Positions 5,117 to 31,618 of a stretch of DNA of 64,000 nt are shown one piece after another. The translations under genes and the position numbers were made by a program. Every line of letters starts with the position of its first letter. Position 1 is the first letter of the stretch. The stretch lies in NCBI RefSeq assembly GCF_053078305.1, contig NZ_CP166879.1; one strand, 5' to 3'. Below the pieces are notes generated by a model, which saw nothing but the letters and a program-made list of their open reading frames with translations, did not search any database and was not told the DNA's origin.

Positions 5117-5806
5117 TTACTCACTCTCTGCCGGTAATACTGGCATCCAGTCAATCGGCGTCTCGCCATGTTGTTCCAGCCACTGATTTGCCAGCACAAA
5201 ATGGTTACAGCCAAAGAATCCACGATGCGCAGAAAGCGGTGACGGATGCGGTGCTTTCAGTACGTGATGGCGTTGCTTATCTATAATCGCCCCTTTCTTT
5301 TGCGCATGCGATCCCCACAACAAAAACACCACGCCTTCGCGATGCTGGTTAATCAGGCTGATTACTTTATCGGTGAAGGTTTCCCAGCCGAGGCTGGCGT
5401 GGGAATGCGCCTGACCTGCGCGTACCGTCAACACAGTATTGAGTAGCAGAACGCCCTGACGCGCCCAGCTTTCAAGATAACCATGATTAGGGCGGGTGAA
5501 GCCCGGAATAGTATTTTCCAGCTCTTTATACATATTCAGCAGTGACGGAGGAGTGGCGATTCCGGGGCGAACGGAAAATGCCAGCCCATGCGCCTGTCCC
5601 GGTCCGTGATAAGGATCCTGGCCGAGAATCACCACTTTAACGTCACCCAACTCGGTAAAGCGGAACGCGTTAAAGACATCTTTTTGTGGTGGATAGATAG
5701 TGACGCCGGACTGCCGCTCGCTGGCGACGGTCTGAAGGGTATTAAGAAAATAGGGTTGCTGCTTCTCTTCAGCCAGCACGTCATGCCAGGTTAATTCGTT
5801 AGCCAT
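5117..5806 (-). CDS. ung: Uracil-DNA glycosylase
   Basis: 229 aa, [11 protein letters not shown]..., [18 protein letters not shown] motif. Confidence 0.95.
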
Positions 5807-22732: not shown

Positions 22733-22937
22733 TTACCGTTAAATTATTTTAAAATCAGTAAGTTGTATCGAGTTTGTATGCTTTACAGTTATTAACTTAC
22801 TGTATGTTGATCCAGTGTATTTAACCTTGATAAACTCAGTCCAGCAACACAAAACCGCAACACATTGCATTTTGTCCCGTAGAAAAGACTTGTATGTGTG
22901 AGCTTGTTTTCTGCGCCTACGCAGATAAGGATTGAGA

Positions 22938-24335
22938 ATGCCGCGCACTGTAACACATAATCCGGATAGCCCCAATAATGACGATGTTTTAGCCGCATCT
23001 GAAAAATGGGACGCCTGTAAACCCCCCTATACCAGCGCACACATAAAAATCTGTGTTGCTGCCGCCAAAATCATCCTCGCAGCTTCCGGCGTGGCTCGCC
23101 GTTCCAAATACGAAAAAGAGAACTATCTCCGTATCGATTTCAGCAAAGCCGGTAAGGTTACATTTTACGCCGAGTTTCCAAAAAAGATGGGCCTCAAGGG
23201 TAAAAAGCTCGGCGAGTGGCCGGAGCTCGCTATCCAGCTGGCGCGCGAAAAAGCGCTAGGTATGGCTGACTGTGGCTTGCGGGCAGAGTCCGTACATGCA
23301 GCGCTGGAAATGTACCGGGATGACCTCAAAGCCAAAGTCGCCCGGCAGAAGCTGAGCCCGGACAGTTTCACAACCTACGGGGTGCGTATCGACCGGATTA
23401 AAGCAACGTTCGGCGAGCGTGAGGTGTTCAGCGACGTAACATACAATCGGCTAGTGGAAGTGCTGGACGAGTGGATCGCCACTCGCTCGAACAATAACGC
23501 CCTGGAGTTGTTTGCCGAGCTCCGTCGGTTCTGGAAGTTCTGCGCACCTACTCTTTGTAACGGTCGCAATGTTGCTGCCAGTCTGCCAGATGATTATGTT
23601 TCCTCCCGCGTACAGAAACCCACCCCCACACGGCTTTTTACCGATATTGAGTCAATCGCCCGGCTCTGGCTCAATGTTGCCGCCTGCACCTCTGTACACC
23701 AGAAGAATGCTGTTCGCTTCATGATCATCACCGGCGTTCGTCCGATTAATGTCCATAACCTGCGCTGGGACTACGTTCACGAGGAGACTGGCGAAATTGT
23801 TTATCCTGAAGGGGTTATCGGCATGCGAGGGGCTATGAAAACACAAAAGGCTTTCCGCCTGCCAATAACGCCGGAGATCCGGCGGATTATCGACGAGCAG
23901 AAAGCATGGCGTGATTCAGTTCCTGAGTGCAACAGGGATTATGTATTTTTGCAGCCGCGTGATCCAATGCAGCCATTTTCAAAACGATCACTGGATAAGC
24001 TAGTGAAAACATACAGCCCGGATGGGGCTGTAAAAGGATTAAAACATGATGGGACTGTTAAAGGGAAAGACGGTGCATTTAATACGATGTGCCGTAAATT
24101 CCTTAAGAGCAATGTTATTGCCTTGATGAAGGAAAGAGGCTATTCCCGATCAGACCGAAGGGAAATCAGCCTCCTTTGCCTTCACCACTCCAGCAAGTCA
24201 GATGACCCGATGGCAGAACATTACGACTTTTCTGATGAGATTTTGCAGGAAGAGATTGCGTTAAAGCGCGAAGCTTTCGAGGCTCACGAGCGGAGCATAC
24301 TTGCGCAGGTGGCATTGCTACGGCGGCGAGGTTAA
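22938..24335 (+). CDS. int: Phage integrase, tyrosine recombinase family
   Basis: Adjacent to attL; C-terminal region with R...H..R...Y-type catalytic signature (ITGVRP..., LHHSSKSD..., AEHY); ATG at 22938 preceded by aagga. Confidence 0.8.
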   Translation: MPRTVTHNPDSPNNDDVLAASEKWDACKPPYTSAHIKICVAAAKIILAASGVARRSKYEKENYLRIDFSKAGKVTFYAEFPKKMGLKGKKLGEWPELAIQLAREKALGMADCGLRAESVHAALEMYRDDLKAKVARQKLSPDSFTTYGVRIDRIKATFGEREVFSDVTYNRLVEVLDEWIATRSNNNALELFAELRRFWKFCAPTLCNGRNVAASLPDDYVSSRVQKPTPTRLFTDIESIARLWLNVAACTSVHQKNAVRFMIITGVRPINVHNLRWDYVHEETGEIVYPEGVIGMRGAMKTQKAFRLPITPEIRRIIDEQKAWRDSVPECNRDYVFLQPRDPMQPFSKRSLDKLVKTYSPDGAVKGLKHDGTVKGKDGAFNTMCRKFLKSNVIALMKERGYSRSDRREISLLCLHHSSKSDDPMAEHYDFSDEILQEEIALKREAFEAHERSILAQVALLRRRG

Positions 24336-24532
24336 TACCGGCTGCGACACTTTTGAATAAAAGCGTCGACATTGCGGCGCTCATAACGAACTACTTTTGC
24401 ACTGAAACGAATTGGTGCCAGGATAGCCCGATGACGATGCTTAATATTCCACTCACATAGCGTTTTCTGTGTAATACCTAACTTTTGGCATACTTCATCC
24501 GGGGTGAGTAAATCGTCGGGTTTCTCGCTCAT
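24332..24532 (-). CDS. AlpA-like HTH DNA-binding protein (putative excisionase/regulator)
   Basis: 66 aa, LLTPDEVCQKLGITQKTLCEWN helix-turn-helix; next to integrase. Confidence 0.6.
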   Translation of the reverse strand: MSEKPDDLLTPDEVCQKLGITQKTLCEWNIKHRHRAILAPIRFSAKVVRYERRNVDAFIQKCRSRY

Positions 24533-25923
24533 GCTATACCTCTCTTTTTCATGGCATCGAGCAGGATGTCCTGCACTGTTCGTTTTGAGTTGCGCCGCTC
24601 CATCACCATTTCGTCCATAGTGTCGGCAGCAATAATGTGGTGAATAAATACCGGACGATTGTGTCCGGCTTGTATCTGCCTGGTGGGGCCGATACGTTCA
24701 ATAATTTGCTGATATTGCTCCAGGTCCCACCAGTGTGAGAAAAATACCAGTATATTTCCGCCGTCTTGCATGTTCAGGCCGTGGCCCGCGCTGGCTGGGT
24801 GTGCAAAGAGAACAGGAATCTTTCCGGAATTCCAGTCGCGCAGTGTCTGTGGATCCTGGTCGAGGTGACGACCGCGAGGGAATGCTTTAAGCAAGCGTTC
24901 AAGATCGTGTTTCCAGTGATAAGCAACCAGCACAGGTGCGCCAGCTGCTTCGGCCAGTATGCTGTCCAGCGCCTGTAGTTTGGTGTCATGCAGTTCTGAC
25001 CAACTTCCGGTGTCGTCTGTGTATACTGCGCCACTGGCGATTTGAAGACACTTCAGTGTCTTTGCCGCGGCGTTCGGTGCTTCGATGCCTTCGCCATTCA
25101 GCTCGAGGAACATTTCCTTTTCCATTTCACGATACTGCTGACGGGCCTTCGGGGGCATATCCACGCGGATTACGTTATGGATGGGGTCTTTGATATCGAA
25201 CCAGTCGGCCGCATCCAGCGAGAGGGTCACATCGGCTAACGCTCGCTGTATTTCACCCTGTGAGTGAGCAAAAGGCTCCAGTTTGGTCCAGCTCTGCCCC
25301 GGAAACTGTATCGATTTGAACCAGCGTGAGGTAAATGCGCCGTAAGTGCGCCCGAGACGTTGCCCCAGGTCCACAAACCACGATTGTCCCCACAAATCTA
25401 CCAGGCCGTTCGGTGCTGGCGTACCGGTGAGATTTATCCAGCGCCGGACATACTTGTGCGCCACTTTGCCCAGCGCCGCCGCGCGCTTACCACCACCTCG
25501 CAGCCGGAAGGATTTTAGCCGGGTGCTTTCATCTGGAATGACAGTACCGAACGGCCATCGTTCTCCCAATTCCTCAACCAGCCAGACAAGGTTATCGTAG
25601 TTGATGGTGAACACGCTCGCGTTGTTGTTCGCCAACGCTGCAGAGCGCGCTTTGGCATTACCAACAATTGGTTGTACCTCGATATTGCGCAAATGCCCCC
25701 ACTTCAGTGCTTCATCCGGCCAGGTGTTTGCTGCAACGCGTAGCGGCGCGAGGACCAGCGCGGGGCGTGTTTCTGCTCCAGCCATGAAAAGATCTTCCAG
25801 CGTGGTGAGTGTCGCTACGGTTTTACCCATCCCCATCCCTGCCCAGATGTTGCCGCGCAGAATGTCGGTTTGGTGATTGATTATGAGGTTTTGATAAAGT
25901 CGGGGGTGGAATATGTTATTCAT
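24529..25923 (-). CDS. Superfamily-2 (SNF2/DEAD-like) helicase
   Basis: GMGKTVATL Walker A, DEST(R) motif II, C-terminal helicase domain; start placed at MNNIFHPRLYQ (ORF extends to 25998). Confidence 0.7.
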   Translation of the reverse strand: MNNIFHPRLYQNLIINHQTDILRGNIWAGMGMGKTVATLTTLEDLFMAGAETRPALVLAPLRVAANTWPDEALKWGHLRNIEVQPIVGNAKARSAALANNNASVFTINYDNLVWLVEELGERWPFGTVIPDESTRLKSFRLRGGGKRAAALGKVAHKYVRRWINLTGTPAPNGLVDLWGQSWFVDLGQRLGRTYGAFTSRWFKSIQFPGQSWTKLEPFAHSQGEIQRALADVTLSLDAADWFDIKDPIHNVIRVDMPPKARQQYREMEKEMFLELNGEGIEAPNAAAKTLKCLQIASGAVYTDDTGSWSELHDTKLQALDSILAEAAGAPVLVAYHWKHDLERLLKAFPRGRHLDQDPQTLRDWNSGKIPVLFAHPASAGHGLNMQDGGNILVFFSHWWDLEQYQQIIERIGPTRQIQAGHNRPVFIHHIIAADTMDEMVMERRNSKRTVQDILLDAMKKRGIA

Positions 25924-25985
25924 TAATACACCTATGGTAGAATATGTGTCAATTCTCTCTCTATATATAACTAACGGAGGCGGGT

Positions 25986-26783
25986 ATGCCCCTGGCAAAA
26001 ATACTTACAAAACAAGTTTCTTTATTAACTGTTTTTTCAGCGTTAGCTTATGTGATGGCATATTCTTTTCAGAAAGGTGTTGCATCGTATTATGGCTATC
26101 CAGCCCTTTTTATTAAAATAGATTTAAATACGCTATTGTATTCGGCTGTATGGCTTTTGTTTTTTAGTTTTTTATTTCTCGGTGCCTTATACGCGACATT
26201 GATGTTTGATTTGAAAGGGAAATATTATGTTCCATTTATTATATTTATAGTGGTTATGCTAATACCTAATTTTTACATAATAGGATTCCATTGGCCTTTT
26301 GGTTATTTCTCAGAAACCTCTGTGATGAGTGTTGGAGATATTTTATTATTTGCTCTGCTTTTGTTGAATTACCACAATGCGGTGTCCGCGTCAATCCATA
26401 GTAAGAGACACGAACATCATATGGATAGCATTAGAAAATTTGGGAGGCTTGCAGAGTATAAAGACGTATTTTATTATATCGATTTAAAAATCCTAAAATC
26501 AGCTTTTCCTTTAGGGGTGATGACATTATTGATATTGAGCTATACCTTCGGGAAGGTTACTGCATTTAAAAATAACGAATATTATATGGTAGATGGTAGT
26601 AATACTAAAGTGTTGCTCAATTCATTTGGTAGTGGTTTTGTTGTTGGTGATTGTGAGTCCAATAGCGCAAAATTTGAATTTGTTAATGATTTAAAAGGGA
26701 TGAAATTCACAGTCATGTCCTCTAAAAAGGAAATAGCTAAATTAAAAGAGTGTTTCGAAACACGTGTTAAAAATACGGATTAA
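25986..26783 (+). CDS. AT-rich multi-pass membrane protein of unknown function (cargo)
   Basis: 265 aa, at least four hydrophobic helices; strongly AT-rich codon usage versus neighbours; ggagg RBS 6 nt upstream; extended -10 TGgTAGAAT at 25945..25953. Confidence 0.5.
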   Translation: MPLAKILTKQVSLLTVFSALAYVMAYSFQKGVASYYGYPALFIKIDLNTLLYSAVWLLFFSFLFLGALYATLMFDLKGKYYVPFIIFIVVMLIPNFYIIGFHWPFGYFSETSVMSVGDILLFALLLLNYHNAVSASIHSKRHEHHMDSIRKFGRLAEYKDVFYYIDLKILKSAFPLGVMTLLILSYTFGKVTAFKNNEYYMVDGSNTKVLLNSFGSGFVVGDCESNSAKFEFVNDLKGMKFTVMSSKKEIAKLKECFETRVKNTD

Positions 26784-26795
26784 AGTATAAGTCTT

Positions 26796-27083
26796 TTATC
26801 TTTTATTGCGGCTTAAAATAATTTCCTCCAGATTTTTGCTATCCAGCACCACCACGGTAAAGCCCAGCTCGCGCAGCCGCTTGTGCTCGCGCAACTGGTC
26901 GGCGCGTGGTGCTTTGCCGGGTGCTTTGCATTCAACGAAAACAAGACGGCCGCCGGGTAGCAGAACAATGCGATCCGGTACCGAGCGGCGACCAGGTGAT
27001 ATGAACTTAAAGGCGACCCCACCAGCCTTTTTCACTTCGGCGACGAGATGCTTCTCGATTAGGTTTTCACGTTCATATATCAT
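26796..27083 (-). CDS. VRR-NUC domain nuclease
   Basis: 95 aa with PD-(D/E)xK-like DRIVLLP...VFVECK motif typical of VRR-NUC; commonly partnered with phage SF2 helicases. Confidence 0.7.
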   Translation of the reverse strand: MIYERENLIEKHLVAEVKKAGGVAFKFISPGRRSVPDRIVLLPGGRLVFVECKAPGKAPRADQLREHKRLRELGFTVVVLDSKNLEEIILSRNKR

Positions 27084-27125
27084 ATGACGTTTCCTTTAGC
27101 CCTCTAGTTTGAGGGCTGGGAATCT

Positions 27126-27677
27126 TTAGCGACGGCTGGGATGAATTTTTTCACGGAGAACTAAGGTTAGTTGTTCTAGTGTCAATGGCTCGCCAAAATT
27201 CTCATGAAATAATGGATTGAATACATGCATCATGCGTTCGTATGTTGCCAGCGAAGGCGTGTGAGAATTAAGATCTCTTAATTTGAATTCTTCAAATCTA
27301 TCCAGTTTATTGATGACGAAATCAGCGGCTGCAAGATACTCAGTTTCGTTATTTCCATCGAATCCTTTGAATATTGGATTTTTTCCAAATAACTCAACAT
27401 TTTCTTTTAACTTCTTTTTTTCTTCTTCTGTAAGTTCACTGTAGCTATATTCAATAACTCTCCACATATCTAGGATGTCTAGAACTTTTTTTACAACACG
27501 TGGAGTTTCGGTATTTTTAAATGGAATACCACTAAATTTCCAAGGGAGTGCCCATGTTTGGTTTTCGAATATAGCATCACGGACAAATGTGTGATCGATT
27601 TCGCCTTCAATCTCGTTTTTATCGTACAGGTCACACAGCATCATTAGAATTAGTTTTTCGCCATCTGAAAGTTGCAT
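27126..27677 (-). CDS. YfbU-family (UPF0304)-like protein, function unknown (cargo)
   Basis: 183 aa; blocks M.LSDGEKLILMML, VKKVLDILDMW, FKGFDGNNETEYL...RFEEF and YERMMHVF resemble E. coli YfbU as recalled from memory; AT-rich. Confidence 0.45.
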   Translation of the reverse strand: MQLSDGEKLILMMLCDLYDKNEIEGEIDHTFVRDAIFENQTWALPWKFSGIPFKNTETPRVVKKVLDILDMWRVIEYSYSELTEEEKKKLKENVELFGKNPIFKGFDGNNETEYLAAADFVINKLDRFEEFKLRDLNSHTPSLATYERMMHVFNPLFHENFGEPLTLEQLTLVLREKIHPSRR

Positions 27678-27682
27678 GTTTT

Positions 27683-28192
27683 TTATCCTTGAGTGTTAAA
27701 CGTTAAATCATCAACGAGTAGATCTATGTGAGGTTGAATAGCCAATATTTTTGCATGCAAAACTCTACCTGTTCTTAACTTTTCCGCAGGAGTTTTTGCA
27801 TCTGAAAGCTCAGAAATATTTTCCCTTATTTCAGCACAAAAATTTTCTGAGTCTATGCTCAATTTTACTTTATTGTTAGGTTTTATTGCTTGGGCTGCAA
27901 ATAAATCGATGAAATCCTCTATTTCAGAAATTATTGGTTCTAAACTTATGCCTCGAACATTTTCCTCATTCGAACCAGGACCAATTGCTCTTAGAGATTT
28001 TATGGCGGTTGATAACTTTCCATGAAGGTTGCCTGCGTCCCTTATACTACGTTGATAATTGACCGTAGCTAAAGCCTTTTGAGCTTCTGTGGCGGCATCC
28101 CGCGACTTTTTCCACCCCCATAGTGAACACATAGCACCAACTATGGTAACAAAAGTACCTATCCTTGATAGCCAGACATCTGTATTTTCCAT
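27683..28192 (-). CDS. Membrane-anchored protein of unknown function (cargo, upstream partner of the YfbU-like gene)
   Basis: 169 aa, single N-terminal TM helix (WLSRIGTFVTIVGAMCSLWGW) then soluble domain; 5-bp gap to downstream gene; AT-rich. Confidence 0.45.
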   Translation of the reverse strand: MENTDVWLSRIGTFVTIVGAMCSLWGWKKSRDAATEAQKALATVNYQRSIRDAGNLHGKLSTAIKSLRAIGPGSNEENVRGISLEPIISEIEDFIDLFAAQAIKPNNKVKLSIDSENFCAEIRENISELSDAKTPAEKLRTGRVLHAKILAIQPHIDLLVDDLTFNTQG

Positions 28193-28277
28193 TAAAGCAC
28201 CAAAAACAATCTGTTAAGGATAGCTATATGATACATATATCTTCAATGATGTCATGTATCTGATTTGTGAGCTGTGA

Positions 28278-30341
28278 TCAGTCCTTACGGTAGTGGTACG
28301 CCTCAAAACCGCCAGCGTTCAGTGGGATATCGGGCGCCCATTCGGGGTTAGTGGAGAGAAGCGCGGAAAGCGCTTTATCGTTGAAATCTTCTGTGTCAGG
28401 TGCTTCGGTGATCACCTCGTCGTGTACCGTCAGCACAATGCTGTAACCGGCATCTTCGATAAGCGGCATGTTTCCGGCCAGAACGTCGCGGGCGGCCGCT
28501 TGGGTGACGTTCTCCACCAGCTTTCCGCCGTAGGTTTTGAGTCGTTGCCATTTACGTGAATAAGAGTTAACACCCATATAGGTGATATTCCCTTTTTCGA
28601 TAATCGGAGACGGGTAGCATACAGCGCGTCCAGATGGCAGCTGTATGCGCAGCCACGCGCCATCACGTCGGATTTTAAGATAGCCGCAATACAATGTTTT
28701 TTGCGGTGTGGCGATTGCAGTGCGGACGGTGCGCTCCAGTTCGTACCAGAAATCACAGGTCGCGGGATGCGCCCGGCGCCAGAGACGTTTAAGTGAGTCG
28801 CAGGCGATAAATACCCGTTCAGAAAGCCCGTAGGTTGACTTGCGTTTAACCGATTCGTCGTACCAGCTTTTCGCCTCGCGGATAACATCGCGGGGAATGT
28901 TTGGTAGTGCGGCGTTCGCCAGCTCGTCGAGATCGAGACCGTAAACCAGTGCAAAAGTGATGAAGGCCGACACACCACCACCATAACCCAGACCGAGTTC
29001 CATGACTTTACCGATCTGACGCATGTGTTTATCAACATCATCTGGTGCAATATCGAAAGCTTTTGCATACGCCAGTTTATATAAGTCCGGACCCGTTCCG
29101 GCGTCGTACTCTCTGAATGCATTCAGTTTCCATTCTTCTCCCGCCAGCCATGCCAGCATACGGCCTTCAATGTTCGACAAGTCACTTACCACCAGCTTTT
29201 TGCCTGTTGGCGCGATAATGCAGCCACGTAACGCTGAACTGGTTAGTTCCATGATATTGTCAAACAGCAGGTCTGCACATCCGGCTTTCAGTGCTTCGAT
29301 GCCTTCGTCTATTTGTTCCTGTTTTAGTGAAGGGCGGGGAAGGTTCTGGGGCTGGAATAGCCGTCCGGCCCAACGACCGGTACGTGACGCCCCGCAGAAC
29401 TGTAGCGTACCGCGTAAGCGCCCGTCGTGGCTTACGCCTTTCATCAGTGCCTTGTATTTACTGGTGCTGGTAGTACTGGCCTGCAGGCGGATAGCCAGCA
29501 GTTCTTTCACGGCAGATGGTAAATCGGGGTCGGCAATACGACGTTCCAGAGTACTGCGTTGCATGTCTGGTAGCTCCACACCGTAGGATTCAACAATGTG
29601 CTTAATCAACGCGTCTCGTTGTGTGGCTGCCTGCACTTCGCCATCAGTCATTTCCTGTGTACGCTTTGCCAGGCGCTTTTGTTCCTGGTCTACCGCGTCG
29701 ATCGCAGCGCGTGCGAGTTCCACGTCCATGCAGACGCCCCGGTCATTGATCTGCTGATCACGATGCCAGAGCGCCAGTTCTGTCCCCTGATAATTCCACT
29801 TCGGCAGACGTTTATAGACTTCGCGCATTGCCTCGATATCCAGTCCGGCGTAAGCAACAAAGCGCCGCCATTCTTCCGGGTGGGTTTTGCTGGTGGCCCG
29901 GCGCAGTTTGCTGTTTTTCGGGCGTGGCTTACAGAACAGCTGGATCAGCGCTTTACCTTCTTTGTCCTTCGCTTTGTCTTGCGGGACGCCTAGTACTTCG
30001 CAGAGTTCCCCCAGAGACCCCGGGAGACCGTGCGCCAGCGCCTGCACCATTGTGTCGCGCCAACGTTCGACTGGCGGTGCCAGGCGCGGCATTGCATAAC
30101 GCAGAACGGTGCGGTCGAAGTGAGAGTTATGGAAATAAAGCAGGGTTTCAGGGTCTGCGATTGCTTCGTATAAGCCGTGTGGAATACCACCACCGGCAGT
30201 GATATCCCACACGTTTACTGGCCCGTCGTTGATAGCCCATGCGAAAAGCATCACTTCAACGCCTTCGGCATACGCATGGGTACCGTTCGTAATAGGGATT
30301 TCGCAATAGGTTTCCAGGTCGCCCCATAGTATATTGGACAT
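28278..30341 (-). CDS. Family-A (Pol I-like) DNA polymerase
   Basis: 687 aa; motif B-like [16 protein letters not shown] and motif C-like [12 protein letters not shown]-terminal region consistent with a 3'-5' exonuclease domain. Confidence 0.72.
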
Positions 30342-30387
30342 GTGTTTACCTTGGTTTTTATTCTATTAACTGATTAAAAGATTAATT

Positions 30388-31017
30388 ATGCATATGATCC
30401 AATACTTGATTGACCATACAGAGCATCTGGAGAAAATAGCTGGATATATTTTTTCATGTTTGATTGTTATGGGAGTCTGGATAAGAAAGATCATTTTTAA
30501 TTATAAGTATAAAGAGCCTAAATATGTCAAGAAGTTAATTTTATATTTAGTTAAGTATGAACGTTATCTGGATGAGGAGGATAAGAGTGCCATAGAAAAA
30601 AGAATAAATGATAAAATTATTCGTGATGCGCTGAAATTGCAATCCTCTTATAACCGAAGAGATGTTATTTACATTTGCAATAGATTAGAAAAAAGACAGT
30701 ATATAAATCAGTTGATTAAGCTTCAGAATTATATAGAGAAAGATAACGGAGTGTTTTTTATTAATGTTGATTTTTCAGGTTTTTTATTTATTATTAGTCG
30801 TCTGTTTTCCTTTCTGTGTTTTGTGCTGTTTACCCTTTTTTCTATTATCTGCATTATTTCCATAGGGCAAAATGAAGGCCTTTTAAATTATCTTGTGTAT
30901 ATGGTTATGATAATAGTTTTAGAGACTGTTGGTTTTTGGATGTATGATACTTTCCCGTCTAAGAAAAAGATCTGTGAACTAAATAAAGAATTGAGAAAGA
31001 TTAAGATTCCTGAGTGA
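30388..31017 (+). CDS. AT-rich membrane protein of unknown function (cargo)
   Basis: 209 aa, one N-terminal and two C-terminal hydrophobic helices, K/E-rich middle; very AT-rich; divergent from polymerase gene. Confidence 0.5.
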   Translation: MHMIQYLIDHTEHLEKIAGYIFSCLIVMGVWIRKIIFNYKYKEPKYVKKLILYLVKYERYLDEEDKSAIEKRINDKIIRDALKLQSSYNRRDVIYICNRLEKRQYINQLIKLQNYIEKDNGVFFINVDFSGFLFIISRLFSFLCFVLFTLFSIICIISIGQNEGLLNYLVYMVMIIVLETVGFWMYDTFPSKKKICELNKELRKIKIPE

Positions 31018-31033
31018 TTATACGCCTAATCAG

Positions 31034-31058
31034 TAGCCCGGTGTTTAACCGGGCGTCT
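31034..31058. terminator. Hairpin between convergent genes
   Basis: gcccggt-gttta-accgggc 7-bp stem; no strong U-tract. Confidence 0.35.
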
Positions 31059-31069
31059 ATGAAGTAGGG

Positions 31070-31618
31070 TTAAATTAGTGCTTCAGCATCAGCACCTTCG
31101 CTGATATCGTCGAAATCGTCAGCGCTTGCCACTCCGCCGCCAGCGAATGCATCGCCGTCTCGCAGGAACTGGACTCCGCCGAGTGAGGCATTAATGCGTT
31201 TACCGAAATTATTGTCCTGTGCCCAGATATCGATAACGGCGTTTACATAGCACCCTGCATAGGGACGTCCGTCAGCCTGAATAAGTGGCGAACGATCGCG
31301 ATCAAGAACAGCTGGGCGCGCTTTGTTAGCAGCATTCAGGAAGAAATTACCGGGGAAGCCTTCATACTCTGCTTTTTCATCACCATCATGCAGGCACAGA
31401 TTGAGTTTTTTCTCCAGCTGGTTATAAATGGGCTCCCACTTCTCTCCCCATTTTTCCTTCGCTACCTGCTTCATAGCTTTACGGATTTCTTCCAGTTGTG
31501 GGTGTTTGGGAGACATTAAAAATACTGCGGAGAAACGCGGATCGCCTTCGCCGTTTACAGTTTTAGCTTCAAACAGAGACGGGAAGGCCAGACGAACATT
31601 GTTCAGCTTCAGTTTCAT
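31070..31618 (-). CDS. Putative phage ssDNA-binding protein (DUF2815-like)
   Basis: 182 aa with acidic C-terminal tail (DDFDDISEGADAEALI) typical of SSB-like proteins; co-occurs with the downstream nuclease in phage replication modules. Confidence 0.55.
   Translation of the reverse strand: MKLKLNNVRLAFPSLFEAKTVNGEGDPRFSAVFLMSPKHPQLEEIRKAMKQVAKEKWGEKWEPIYNQLEKKLNLCLHDGDEKAEYEGFPGNFFLNAANKARPAVLDRDRSPLIQADGRPYAGCYVNAVIDIWAQDNNFGKRINASLGGVQFLRDGDAFAGGGVASADDFDDISEGADAEALI

Follow-up and report, generated by a model that had tools for sequence, protein, structure and literature searches.

A mobile two-gene cassette of a YfbU-family protein and a putatively membrane-anchored partner in a variable slot of an Escherichia coli prophage

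We analysed a window of 64,000 nucleotides (contig NZ_CP166879.1 of NCBI RefSeq assembly GCF_053078305.1), which is occupied by Escherichia coli chromosome with a prophage integrated beside yfhL, and characterised two adjacent prophage genes that an earlier note, made from the letters of the stretch, had pointed out as possible phage-carried cargo. The first gene encodes a protein of 169 amino acids (aa) with a hydrophobic N-terminal segment, here called the partner, and the second a 183-aa protein of the YfbU family. To judge from sequence comparisons, the pair is a horizontally mobile cassette. We propose, with about even credence, that this self-contained cassette may be a two-component relative of Kamadhenu that shields the lysogen from other phages through an abortive-infection-type mechanism; Kamadhenu is a 180-aa single-gene system with an abortive-infection phenotype that was found on the Lactococcus plasmid pUCCL624 (PMC11381338).

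Both genes belong to the minus-strand early operon of the prophage, which also includes genes for an SNF2 helicase, VRR-NUC, PolA, DUF2815 and DUF2800. The features on which the argument depends are the following.

27683-28192, minus strand: partner gene, 169 aa, predicted to consist of a hydrophobic anchor at the N-terminus (about residues 6-26) and then a four-helix bundle
27126-27677, minus strand: YfbU-family gene, 183 aa, member of the mobile 183-aa clade
27078-28266: variable cargo slot, from the PolA stop to the VRR-NUC start, delimited by blastn against the related yfhL prophages L020-L023
28278-30341, minus strand: PolA gene, one flank of the pair
26796-27083, minus strand: VRR-NUC gene, the other flank
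22932-24335: integrase gene of the prophage beside yfhL

The two co-directional open reading frames (ORFs) and the 5-bp gap described in the earlier note were found exactly at the coordinates given there, on the minus strand, with 5 nt between the partner stop (27683-27685) and the YfbU ATG (27677-27675). Their GC content was 0.380 for the partner gene and 0.364 for the YfbU gene, with values at third codon positions of 0.27 and 0.31, respectively. The flanking genes reached 0.521 (VRR-NUC) and 0.542 (PolA), and the window mean was 0.50, which bears out the observation that the pair is more AT-rich than its replication flanks (0.36-0.38 versus 0.52-0.54). Since the ratios of non-synonymous to synonymous substitutions (dN/dS) against orthologues were 0.09-0.26 for both genes, indicating purifying selection, and full-length homologues of both proteins were found in many taxa, both ORFs can be taken as real genes.

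The pair fills a precisely bounded slot. In blastn comparisons with the pair-less yfhL prophages L020-L023, homology of 90-99% stopped at 27077 and restarted at 28267-28282. A megablast search with positions 26700-28400 found the flanks in 158 of 5426 complete E. coli genomes, and four of these carried the pair (OkiPb01695, 2013C-4465, CB9615, and DEC5B); a sensitive search of the 5426 genomes with the pair alone returned the identical four and no further ones. The comparison of homologous prophages that had been suggested as a check thus found the pair missing from 154 of 158, with intact flanks, rather than uniformly present. This result largely refutes the reading that the pair belongs to the replication or recombination machinery of the phage itself. 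Such a role would be in line with the position between PolA and VRR-NUC and with the finding that every Kamadhenu escape phage is altered at G22 of a Sak-like single-strand annealing protein (PMC12184496), a genetic link showing that YfbU proteins touch recombination. The foreign composition of the pair and its many non-phage contexts speak against this reading as well. Moreover, neither protein had homology to replication proteins in searches of PADLOC, NCBIfam, PHROGs, and Pfam, as was anticipated when the pair was said to have no obvious replication role, and we consider the chances of this alternative close to nil.

Other prophages of this family hold different genes in the same slot. It contains a 253-aa TIR-domain protein with a hypothetical gene and an ANR pseudogene in strain IAI1 (L020:5813-6574), a 342-aa ATP-binding protein on the opposite strand in L022 (5445-6473), DUF4406 with ANR in another related prophage, and DUF7446 with ANR in L023 (DUF7446 at 5272-5511). 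The TIR-domain and ATP-binding proteins may be further defence or counter-defence cargo. A Citrobacter relative carries the pair in the same slot, with 82-87% nucleotide identity over pair and flanks. Because of this shared position and identity, the pair is a long-term resident of one prophage sub-lineage that has nevertheless retained its low GC content, and no recent one-off insertion. Of the proposed foreign two-gene insert, the cargo status in a precise variable slot and the foreign composition therefore stand, and a recent arrival does not, given the Citrobacter copy. This Citrobacter copy lies near an MksE/MksF/DUF7281 cluster. In the same prophage (L004:7961-12450), the SNF2 gene was called at just 191 aa and is directly followed by the DUF7281/MksF/MksE genes, which are possibly a condensin-like defence insertion that disrupts the helicase gene.

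Next to the two genes, a promoter-like site and a hairpin were recognised.

28228-28255, minus strand: sigma-70-type promoter-like site, -35 ATGACA at 28255-28250, 16-nt spacer, -10 TATCAT at 28233-28228
27098-27117, minus strand: stem-loop AGCCCTC-AAACTA-GAGGGCT, 8 nt past the YfbU stop, without a U-tract

The promoter-like site was the best match in positions 25800-31200, with 10 of 12 positions, and in each of the six enterobacterial contexts examined (6/6) identical hexamers with the same 16-nt spacing preceded the partner gene, although spacers and surroundings differed. Nucleotide homology to the Morganella copy ran from 28256, exactly at the -35 element, to about 27136, just before the YfbU stop. 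This phylogenetic footprint suggests that the cassette carries its own, presumably active promoter. The stem-loop was retained in Citrobacter with a different loop, and unrelated hairpins were found at the same position in L007, L009, and L016, so that a hairpin stood straight after the YfbU stop in each context. The terminator scan did not call the stem-loop at 27098-27117, and a role as terminator is putative. On these comparisons, the mobile unit appears as promoter-like site, partner gene, YfbU gene, and hairpin, which is a classic moron layout.

The same pair was found in a wide range of elements. It is located at the integrase end of a Morganella lambdoid prophage at icd, in an integrase-bearing island beside an ABC-3C-type cluster (AAA_23, MC2, and CTD6 domains), on a Raoultella IncFII plasmid, in Pseudomonas aeruginosa, in a Lonsdalea integrative and conjugative element (ICE), and in Vibrio superintegron cassettes (L010-L013) that form arrays of small ORFs, one of them near a ParE toxin gene. 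It adjoins an AIPR abortive-infection gene in Agarilytica and lies two genes away from a CAP12/PCTIR TIR gene in Alcanivorax; in all these contexts, neighbours were assigned to defence by precomputed Pfam labels. The YfbU gene alone was observed beside integron-type tyrosine recombinases in metagenome-assembled genomes (MAGs) of Desulfobacterales (L041-L043), as an integron cassette. Among viral sequences, IMG/VR contained 26 YfbU loci, three with the partner, about ten with a fusion to a ribbon-helix-helix (RHH) domain, and the rest solo; a solo close relative of YfbU follows gpD in a P2-like Yersinia phage, and a search for the partner among sequenced phages gave no match. The pair is therefore not confined to prophages, as would be characteristic of superinfection-exclusion membrane proteins, which act at DNA entry; chromosomal islands, integron cassettes, an ICE, and a plasmid carry it as well. 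The alternative slot gene DUF7446 (L023:5272-5511) was also seen in the Lonsdalea ICE, at a distance of a few kb from the pair (L016:9660-9914), and this occurrence in both places suggests that small cargo genes from a shared pool move between phages and conjugative elements.

These contexts also bear on the possibility that the pair is lytic-cycle cargo that benefits the phage, through counter-defence, host takeover, or competitor exclusion during replication, and not through lysogen immunity. The embedding of the pair in the early replication operon, in the same direction, agrees with such a role, and so do the likely read-through past a hairpin without a U-tract and the phage-serving look of some slot genes for nucleotide metabolism or modification (DUF4406 in the same slot, Nmad5 and a cytosine methyltransferase in neighbouring ones). 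However, the pair is often found away from phages (Vibrio integron cassettes, chromosomal islands, and plasmids), it has its own conserved promoter motif, and the validated YfbU-domain homologue acts against phages, which makes lytic cargo distinctly improbable.

To describe the linkage between the two families, YfbU loci were collected from one genome per species, 80 loci were kept, and these were analysed by local HMM searches. Four architectures were distinguished.

183-aa clade, 25 loci: partner directly upstream, same strand, in 22 (one of them a fragment)
Distant YfbU clade of about 167 aa, 9 loci (L092, L093, L098-L104): partner immediately downstream
N-terminal RHH-YfbU fusions, 23 loci (e.g., L050-L090): no partner
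Remaining YfbU loci, 23: no partner (solo)

The clade of about 167 aa, with its reversed gene order, came from Nitrospirota, Zixibacteria, Pseudomonas, Brevundimonas, and others. The fusions share the motif ERFEMRLD...SRAEAVRRL, and the Xanthomonas copy matched Pfam RHH_1 with E=1.2e-3. Architecture followed the clades in a neighbour-joining (NJ) tree, which is a rough distance tree. When all neighbours in >100 loci were clustered all against all, the partner was the sole family recurring across unrelated contexts, 34 times upstream and 9 times downstream; this clustering revealed no third conserved gene near the pair, and no alternative adjacent membrane partner was found in the solo YfbU loci. 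The converse scan, starting from the partner in metagenome contigs, gave 49 loci, 41 with YfbU directly downstream, five that ran off the contig, and three without YfbU, so that linkage was present in 41 of 44 evaluable loci, with gaps of -50 to +21 nt. As this linkage was seen from both sides and in two gene orders, it is strong evidence that partner and YfbU are functionally coupled, and the proposal of a two-gene operon is confirmed in that the pair behaves as a single unit from either search side. YfbU is frequently without a partner (solo or RHH-fused), whereas the partner is almost never without YfbU, and this asymmetry indicates that YfbU is the core component and the partner an accessory.

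The assignment of the 183-aa protein to YfbU/UPF0304 proved correct, as its residues 1-171 matched positions 1-161 of the 166-position Pfam model PF03887 with E=6.3e-21. In addition, it matched phrog_6084 (E=7e-42) and PDB YfbU (E=1e-5), and it has the two-domain helical YfbU fold. It was ruled out as an orthologue of chromosomal YfbU: the score against the chromosomal equivalog NCBIfam NF003936 was 57.3 bits, below the curated cut-off of 90, identity to E. coli YfbU was 26% over 98 aa, and the protein fell in a separate clade of the NJ tree. This clade, of constant length, extends across Enterobacterales, Vibrio, Pseudomonas, Alcanivorax, Psychrobacter, Desulfobacterota, and even MAGs of Bacillota, with 50-66% identity and 55 invariant columns that include GFDGNNE, NSH, and HP.

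The partner, in turn, had no match in Pfam, NCBIfam, PADLOC, PHROGs, or PDB sequences, and Pfam searches with 17 diverse members of its family gave no significant match (0 of 17). An exhaustive profile search collected 225 representative clusters at E<=1e-3, nearly all of about 165 aa, and by these comparisons the 169-aa protein appears as the founding member of an unannotated family without a Pfam model. Its AlphaFold2 model (predicted local distance difference test, pLDDT, 81) consists of a long N-terminal helix, residues 2-67, and then a helical bundle. Fold searches returned generic four-helix bundles and its own uncharacterised family only, without a functional lead; the UniProt labels DUF4760 and DUF2489 attached to two AlphaFold database matches were discarded, as they were not reproduced by Pfam and a literature search on them gave nothing. 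The partner also changes more rapidly than its companion, with 47% identity in the Raoultella copy versus 66% for YfbU, and 19-26% versus 54-57% in the Vibrio and Pseudomonas copies; the partner evolves faster than YfbU.

Transmembrane (TM) prediction for the partner was based on hydropathy alone. Residues 6-24, which include Arg10, gave the 19-residue Kyte-Doolittle maximum of 1.53, and the position of this hydrophobic segment was conserved family-wide, with values of 1.16-2.42. The conserved segment is of the IGSIASIGGAIWA type, a small-xxx-small pattern followed by R/K. The single N-terminal TM helix claimed in the earlier note is thus strengthened by its conservation across the family and weakened by the borderline values of this copy. 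When the positive-inside rule was applied to the orientation of the partner, its helical bundle would be cytoplasmic.

These properties of the partner bring in the main mechanistic rival, an arrangement like lambda RexAB, in which YfbU would be the cytoplasmic sensor and the partner the effector, which, once activated, would oligomerise through its small-residue TM helix and depolarise the membrane. The family-wide small-xxx-small pattern is typical of TM helix packing, the two genes are tightly coupled in translation, and pairs of a cytosolic sensor and a membrane effector are common, as in lambda RexAB and the TM effectors of CBASS and Pycsar. On the other hand, one marginal TM helix is a weak candidate for a pore. 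Moreover, YfbU-domain proteins act alone in abortive infection (PMC11381338), and many mobile YfbU genes are without a membrane partner. Since YfbU acts alone and is often partnerless, the effector must reside in YfbU or be recruited by it, and we regard the RexAB-like arrangement as unlikely.

A second rival is an addiction module, similar to toxin-antitoxin pairs, that stabilises the carrier elements and for which phage defence is incidental. The pair is a compact coupled operon carried by plasmids, integron cassettes, an ICE, and prophages, which agrees with such a module, and the gap of 5 nt here, or -50 to +21 nt across 41 loci, is that of the small coupled operon of type II systems. In agreement, the sister clade fuses YfbU to RHH, a typical antitoxin DNA-binding fold, the Xanthomonas copy adjoins a RelE/ParE toxin gene, and MazF-dependent death following DNA damage requires E. 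coli yfbU, which was called a "death gene" (PMC2646832). However, both proteins exceed the size of typical type II pairs, and a DNA-binding antitoxin (RHH, HTH, or AbrB) was not recognised in the pair: the partner is without a Pfam domain and is predicted to be membrane-anchored with a four-helix bundle, and the RHH domain occurs only fused to YfbU, in the sister clade. In addition, the frequency of solo YfbU genes implies that the protein is not toxic constitutively, and gene order is reversed in one clade. We consider an addiction module rather improbable.

The anti-phage reading proposed at the outset is favoured because Kamadhenu has been validated, the pair sits in a hotspot with other cargo, some copies have defence-island neighbours, and the cassette has its own promoter motif. 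The requirement of MazF-linked death for E. coli yfbU (PMC2646832) speaks for it as well. Under this reading, the cassette would be expressed in the lysogen, and cytoplasmic YfbU would be the core that responds to the DNA replication or recombination machinery of an incoming phage and halts the infection. The trigger is suggested by the mapping of Kamadhenu escapers to the Sak-like annealing protein, and the assignment of both sensing and killing to YfbU by the ability of YfbU proteins to work and travel alone. The partner may be a dedicated membrane-anchored adaptor, made in step with YfbU, which would tether YfbU to the inner membrane or gate it there, in the sensor or regulator role that KwaA has for KwaB in Kiwa. 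Several observations weigh against this proposal. The TM call is borderline in this copy, with a Kyte-Doolittle maximum of 1.53 and an internal Arg; the pair reads in the same direction as the early replication operon of the phage, which makes lytic-cycle rather than lysogen expression possible; the likeness to Kamadhenu is one of domain and fold, not of direct sequence comparison; and PADLOC-DB 2.0.0, of 2023 and so predating Kamadhenu, gave 0 families at E<=1 for both proteins. The suggestion of a defence or abortive-infection system in the earlier note was hence upheld as regards cargo status in a variable slot, and its defence part is reached by inference from Kamadhenu, defence neighbourhoods, and the alternative slot cargo.

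A wider reading is offered more tentatively, and is less probable than not by a clear measure: partner and YfbU might be an unrecognised, widespread two-component abortive-infection system, in which one and the same YfbU core is combined with interchangeable accessories (a membrane partner before or behind the gene, an RHH fusion, or none) and the core chromosomal pair yfbV-yfbU is a domesticated analogue. If this were true, the cassette would give a biochemical function to YfbU after two decades without a known activity. YfbU is conserved and its structure was released in 2004, and yet it has an orphan fold and no known activity, and the only functional leads are the MazF "death gene" phenotype and Kamadhenu. 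The locus offers a compact, E. coli-native version of YfbU with a promoter-like motif and a strictly linked partner. The analysis also delimits a new family of putatively membrane-anchored proteins, with 225 representative clusters and no Pfam model, shows a modular build throughout the family, in which YfbU has its partner upstream or downstream, is fused to RHH, or stands alone, and defines a three-slot cargo hotspot in the widespread yfhL prophage family that can be mined for more defence or counter-defence genes.

The other two slots of this hotspot are also AT-rich, and both encode hydrophobic proteins and vary independently of the slot of the pair. One, at 25986-26783 on the plus strand (GC 0.325), separates the SNF2 and VRR-NUC genes, which are on the other strand; its ORF encodes a 265-aa multi-pass hydrophobic protein without a family match, common to IAI1-type relatives, and other relatives have here a 108-aa protein, or a 309-aa protein and a cytosine methyltransferase. 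The other, at 30388-31017 on the plus strand (GC 0.29), lies between PolA and DUF2815 and encodes a 209-aa protein, hydrophobic in its C-terminal region, that matched phrog_10579 (E=3e-108, function unknown); other relatives carry a nucleotide-modification gene, Nmad5, and a hypothetical gene in this place. Searches of PADLOC, NCBIfam, and PHROGs with both ORFs returned function-unknown PHROGs only. The longest ORF of the SNF2 helicase (24529-25998, minus strand, 489 aa) begins with TTG and overlaps the beginning of the plus-strand ORF for the 265-aa protein. As RefSeq relatives annotate a shorter helicase, of 464 aa, translation probably starts further downstream, and the overlap would be an artefact of ORF calling.

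Finally, the pair was compared with known systems. A literature search found no mention of the paired system, the partner family, or the RHH fusions. The remark that this is not a described system is therefore right as regards the pair and the membrane partner, but the YfbU half belongs to a domain family with a described single-gene system. RHH-YfbU fusions, such as the 240-aa protein of the Xanthomonas citri plasmid pXcaw58, form a sister clade of the mobile YfbU radiation and are likewise found on plasmids and prophages, but an N-terminal RHH domain replaces the separate membrane partner, no neighbour is conserved, and they are uncharacterised. Such fusions were located at L018:3827-4549 and L019:3737-4459, and the pXcaw58 copy lies just downstream of the RelE/ParE toxin gene.

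Lambda RexAB and Kiwa KwaAB are two-gene pairs of a membrane and a cytosolic protein with their own promoter, and RexAB is prophage-borne; RexA and KwaB have been linked to phage DNA replication or recombination intermediates, and RexB and KwaA have four TM helices. The cassette resembles them in being a two-gene operon for one membrane and one cytoplasmic protein. This likeness is architectural only, with no relation in sequence or fold, and the partner has a single predicted N-terminal anchor and a soluble four-helix bundle instead.

Chromosomal YfbU (UPF0304; PDB 1WPB/4LR3) shares Pfam family and fold with the 183-aa protein, and its gene is likewise preceded, 82 bp upstream, by a co-directional gene for a small inner-membrane protein (yfbV, DUF412; L024:1957-2989). 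However, YfbV is unrelated to the partner, and the chromosomal pair is core and not mobile. The idea that the partner is a diverged YfbV was rejected (hhalign probability 0.1), and phmmer with YfbV matched only L024, the E. coli chromosome fragment.

The closest parallel is with Kamadhenu, which is the only experimentally characterised mobile YfbU protein. Both have about 180 aa, consist essentially of one YfbU domain with the 1WPB fold, and are carried on mobile elements near other defence genes. They differ in host phylum and in that Kamadhenu is a single gene, whereas YfbU adjoins the partner in 22 of 25 loci of its clade and in 41 of 44 metagenome loci. What is new here is a YfbU protein with a linked membrane partner, which we infer to be a two-gene variant of a Kamadhenu-like system.

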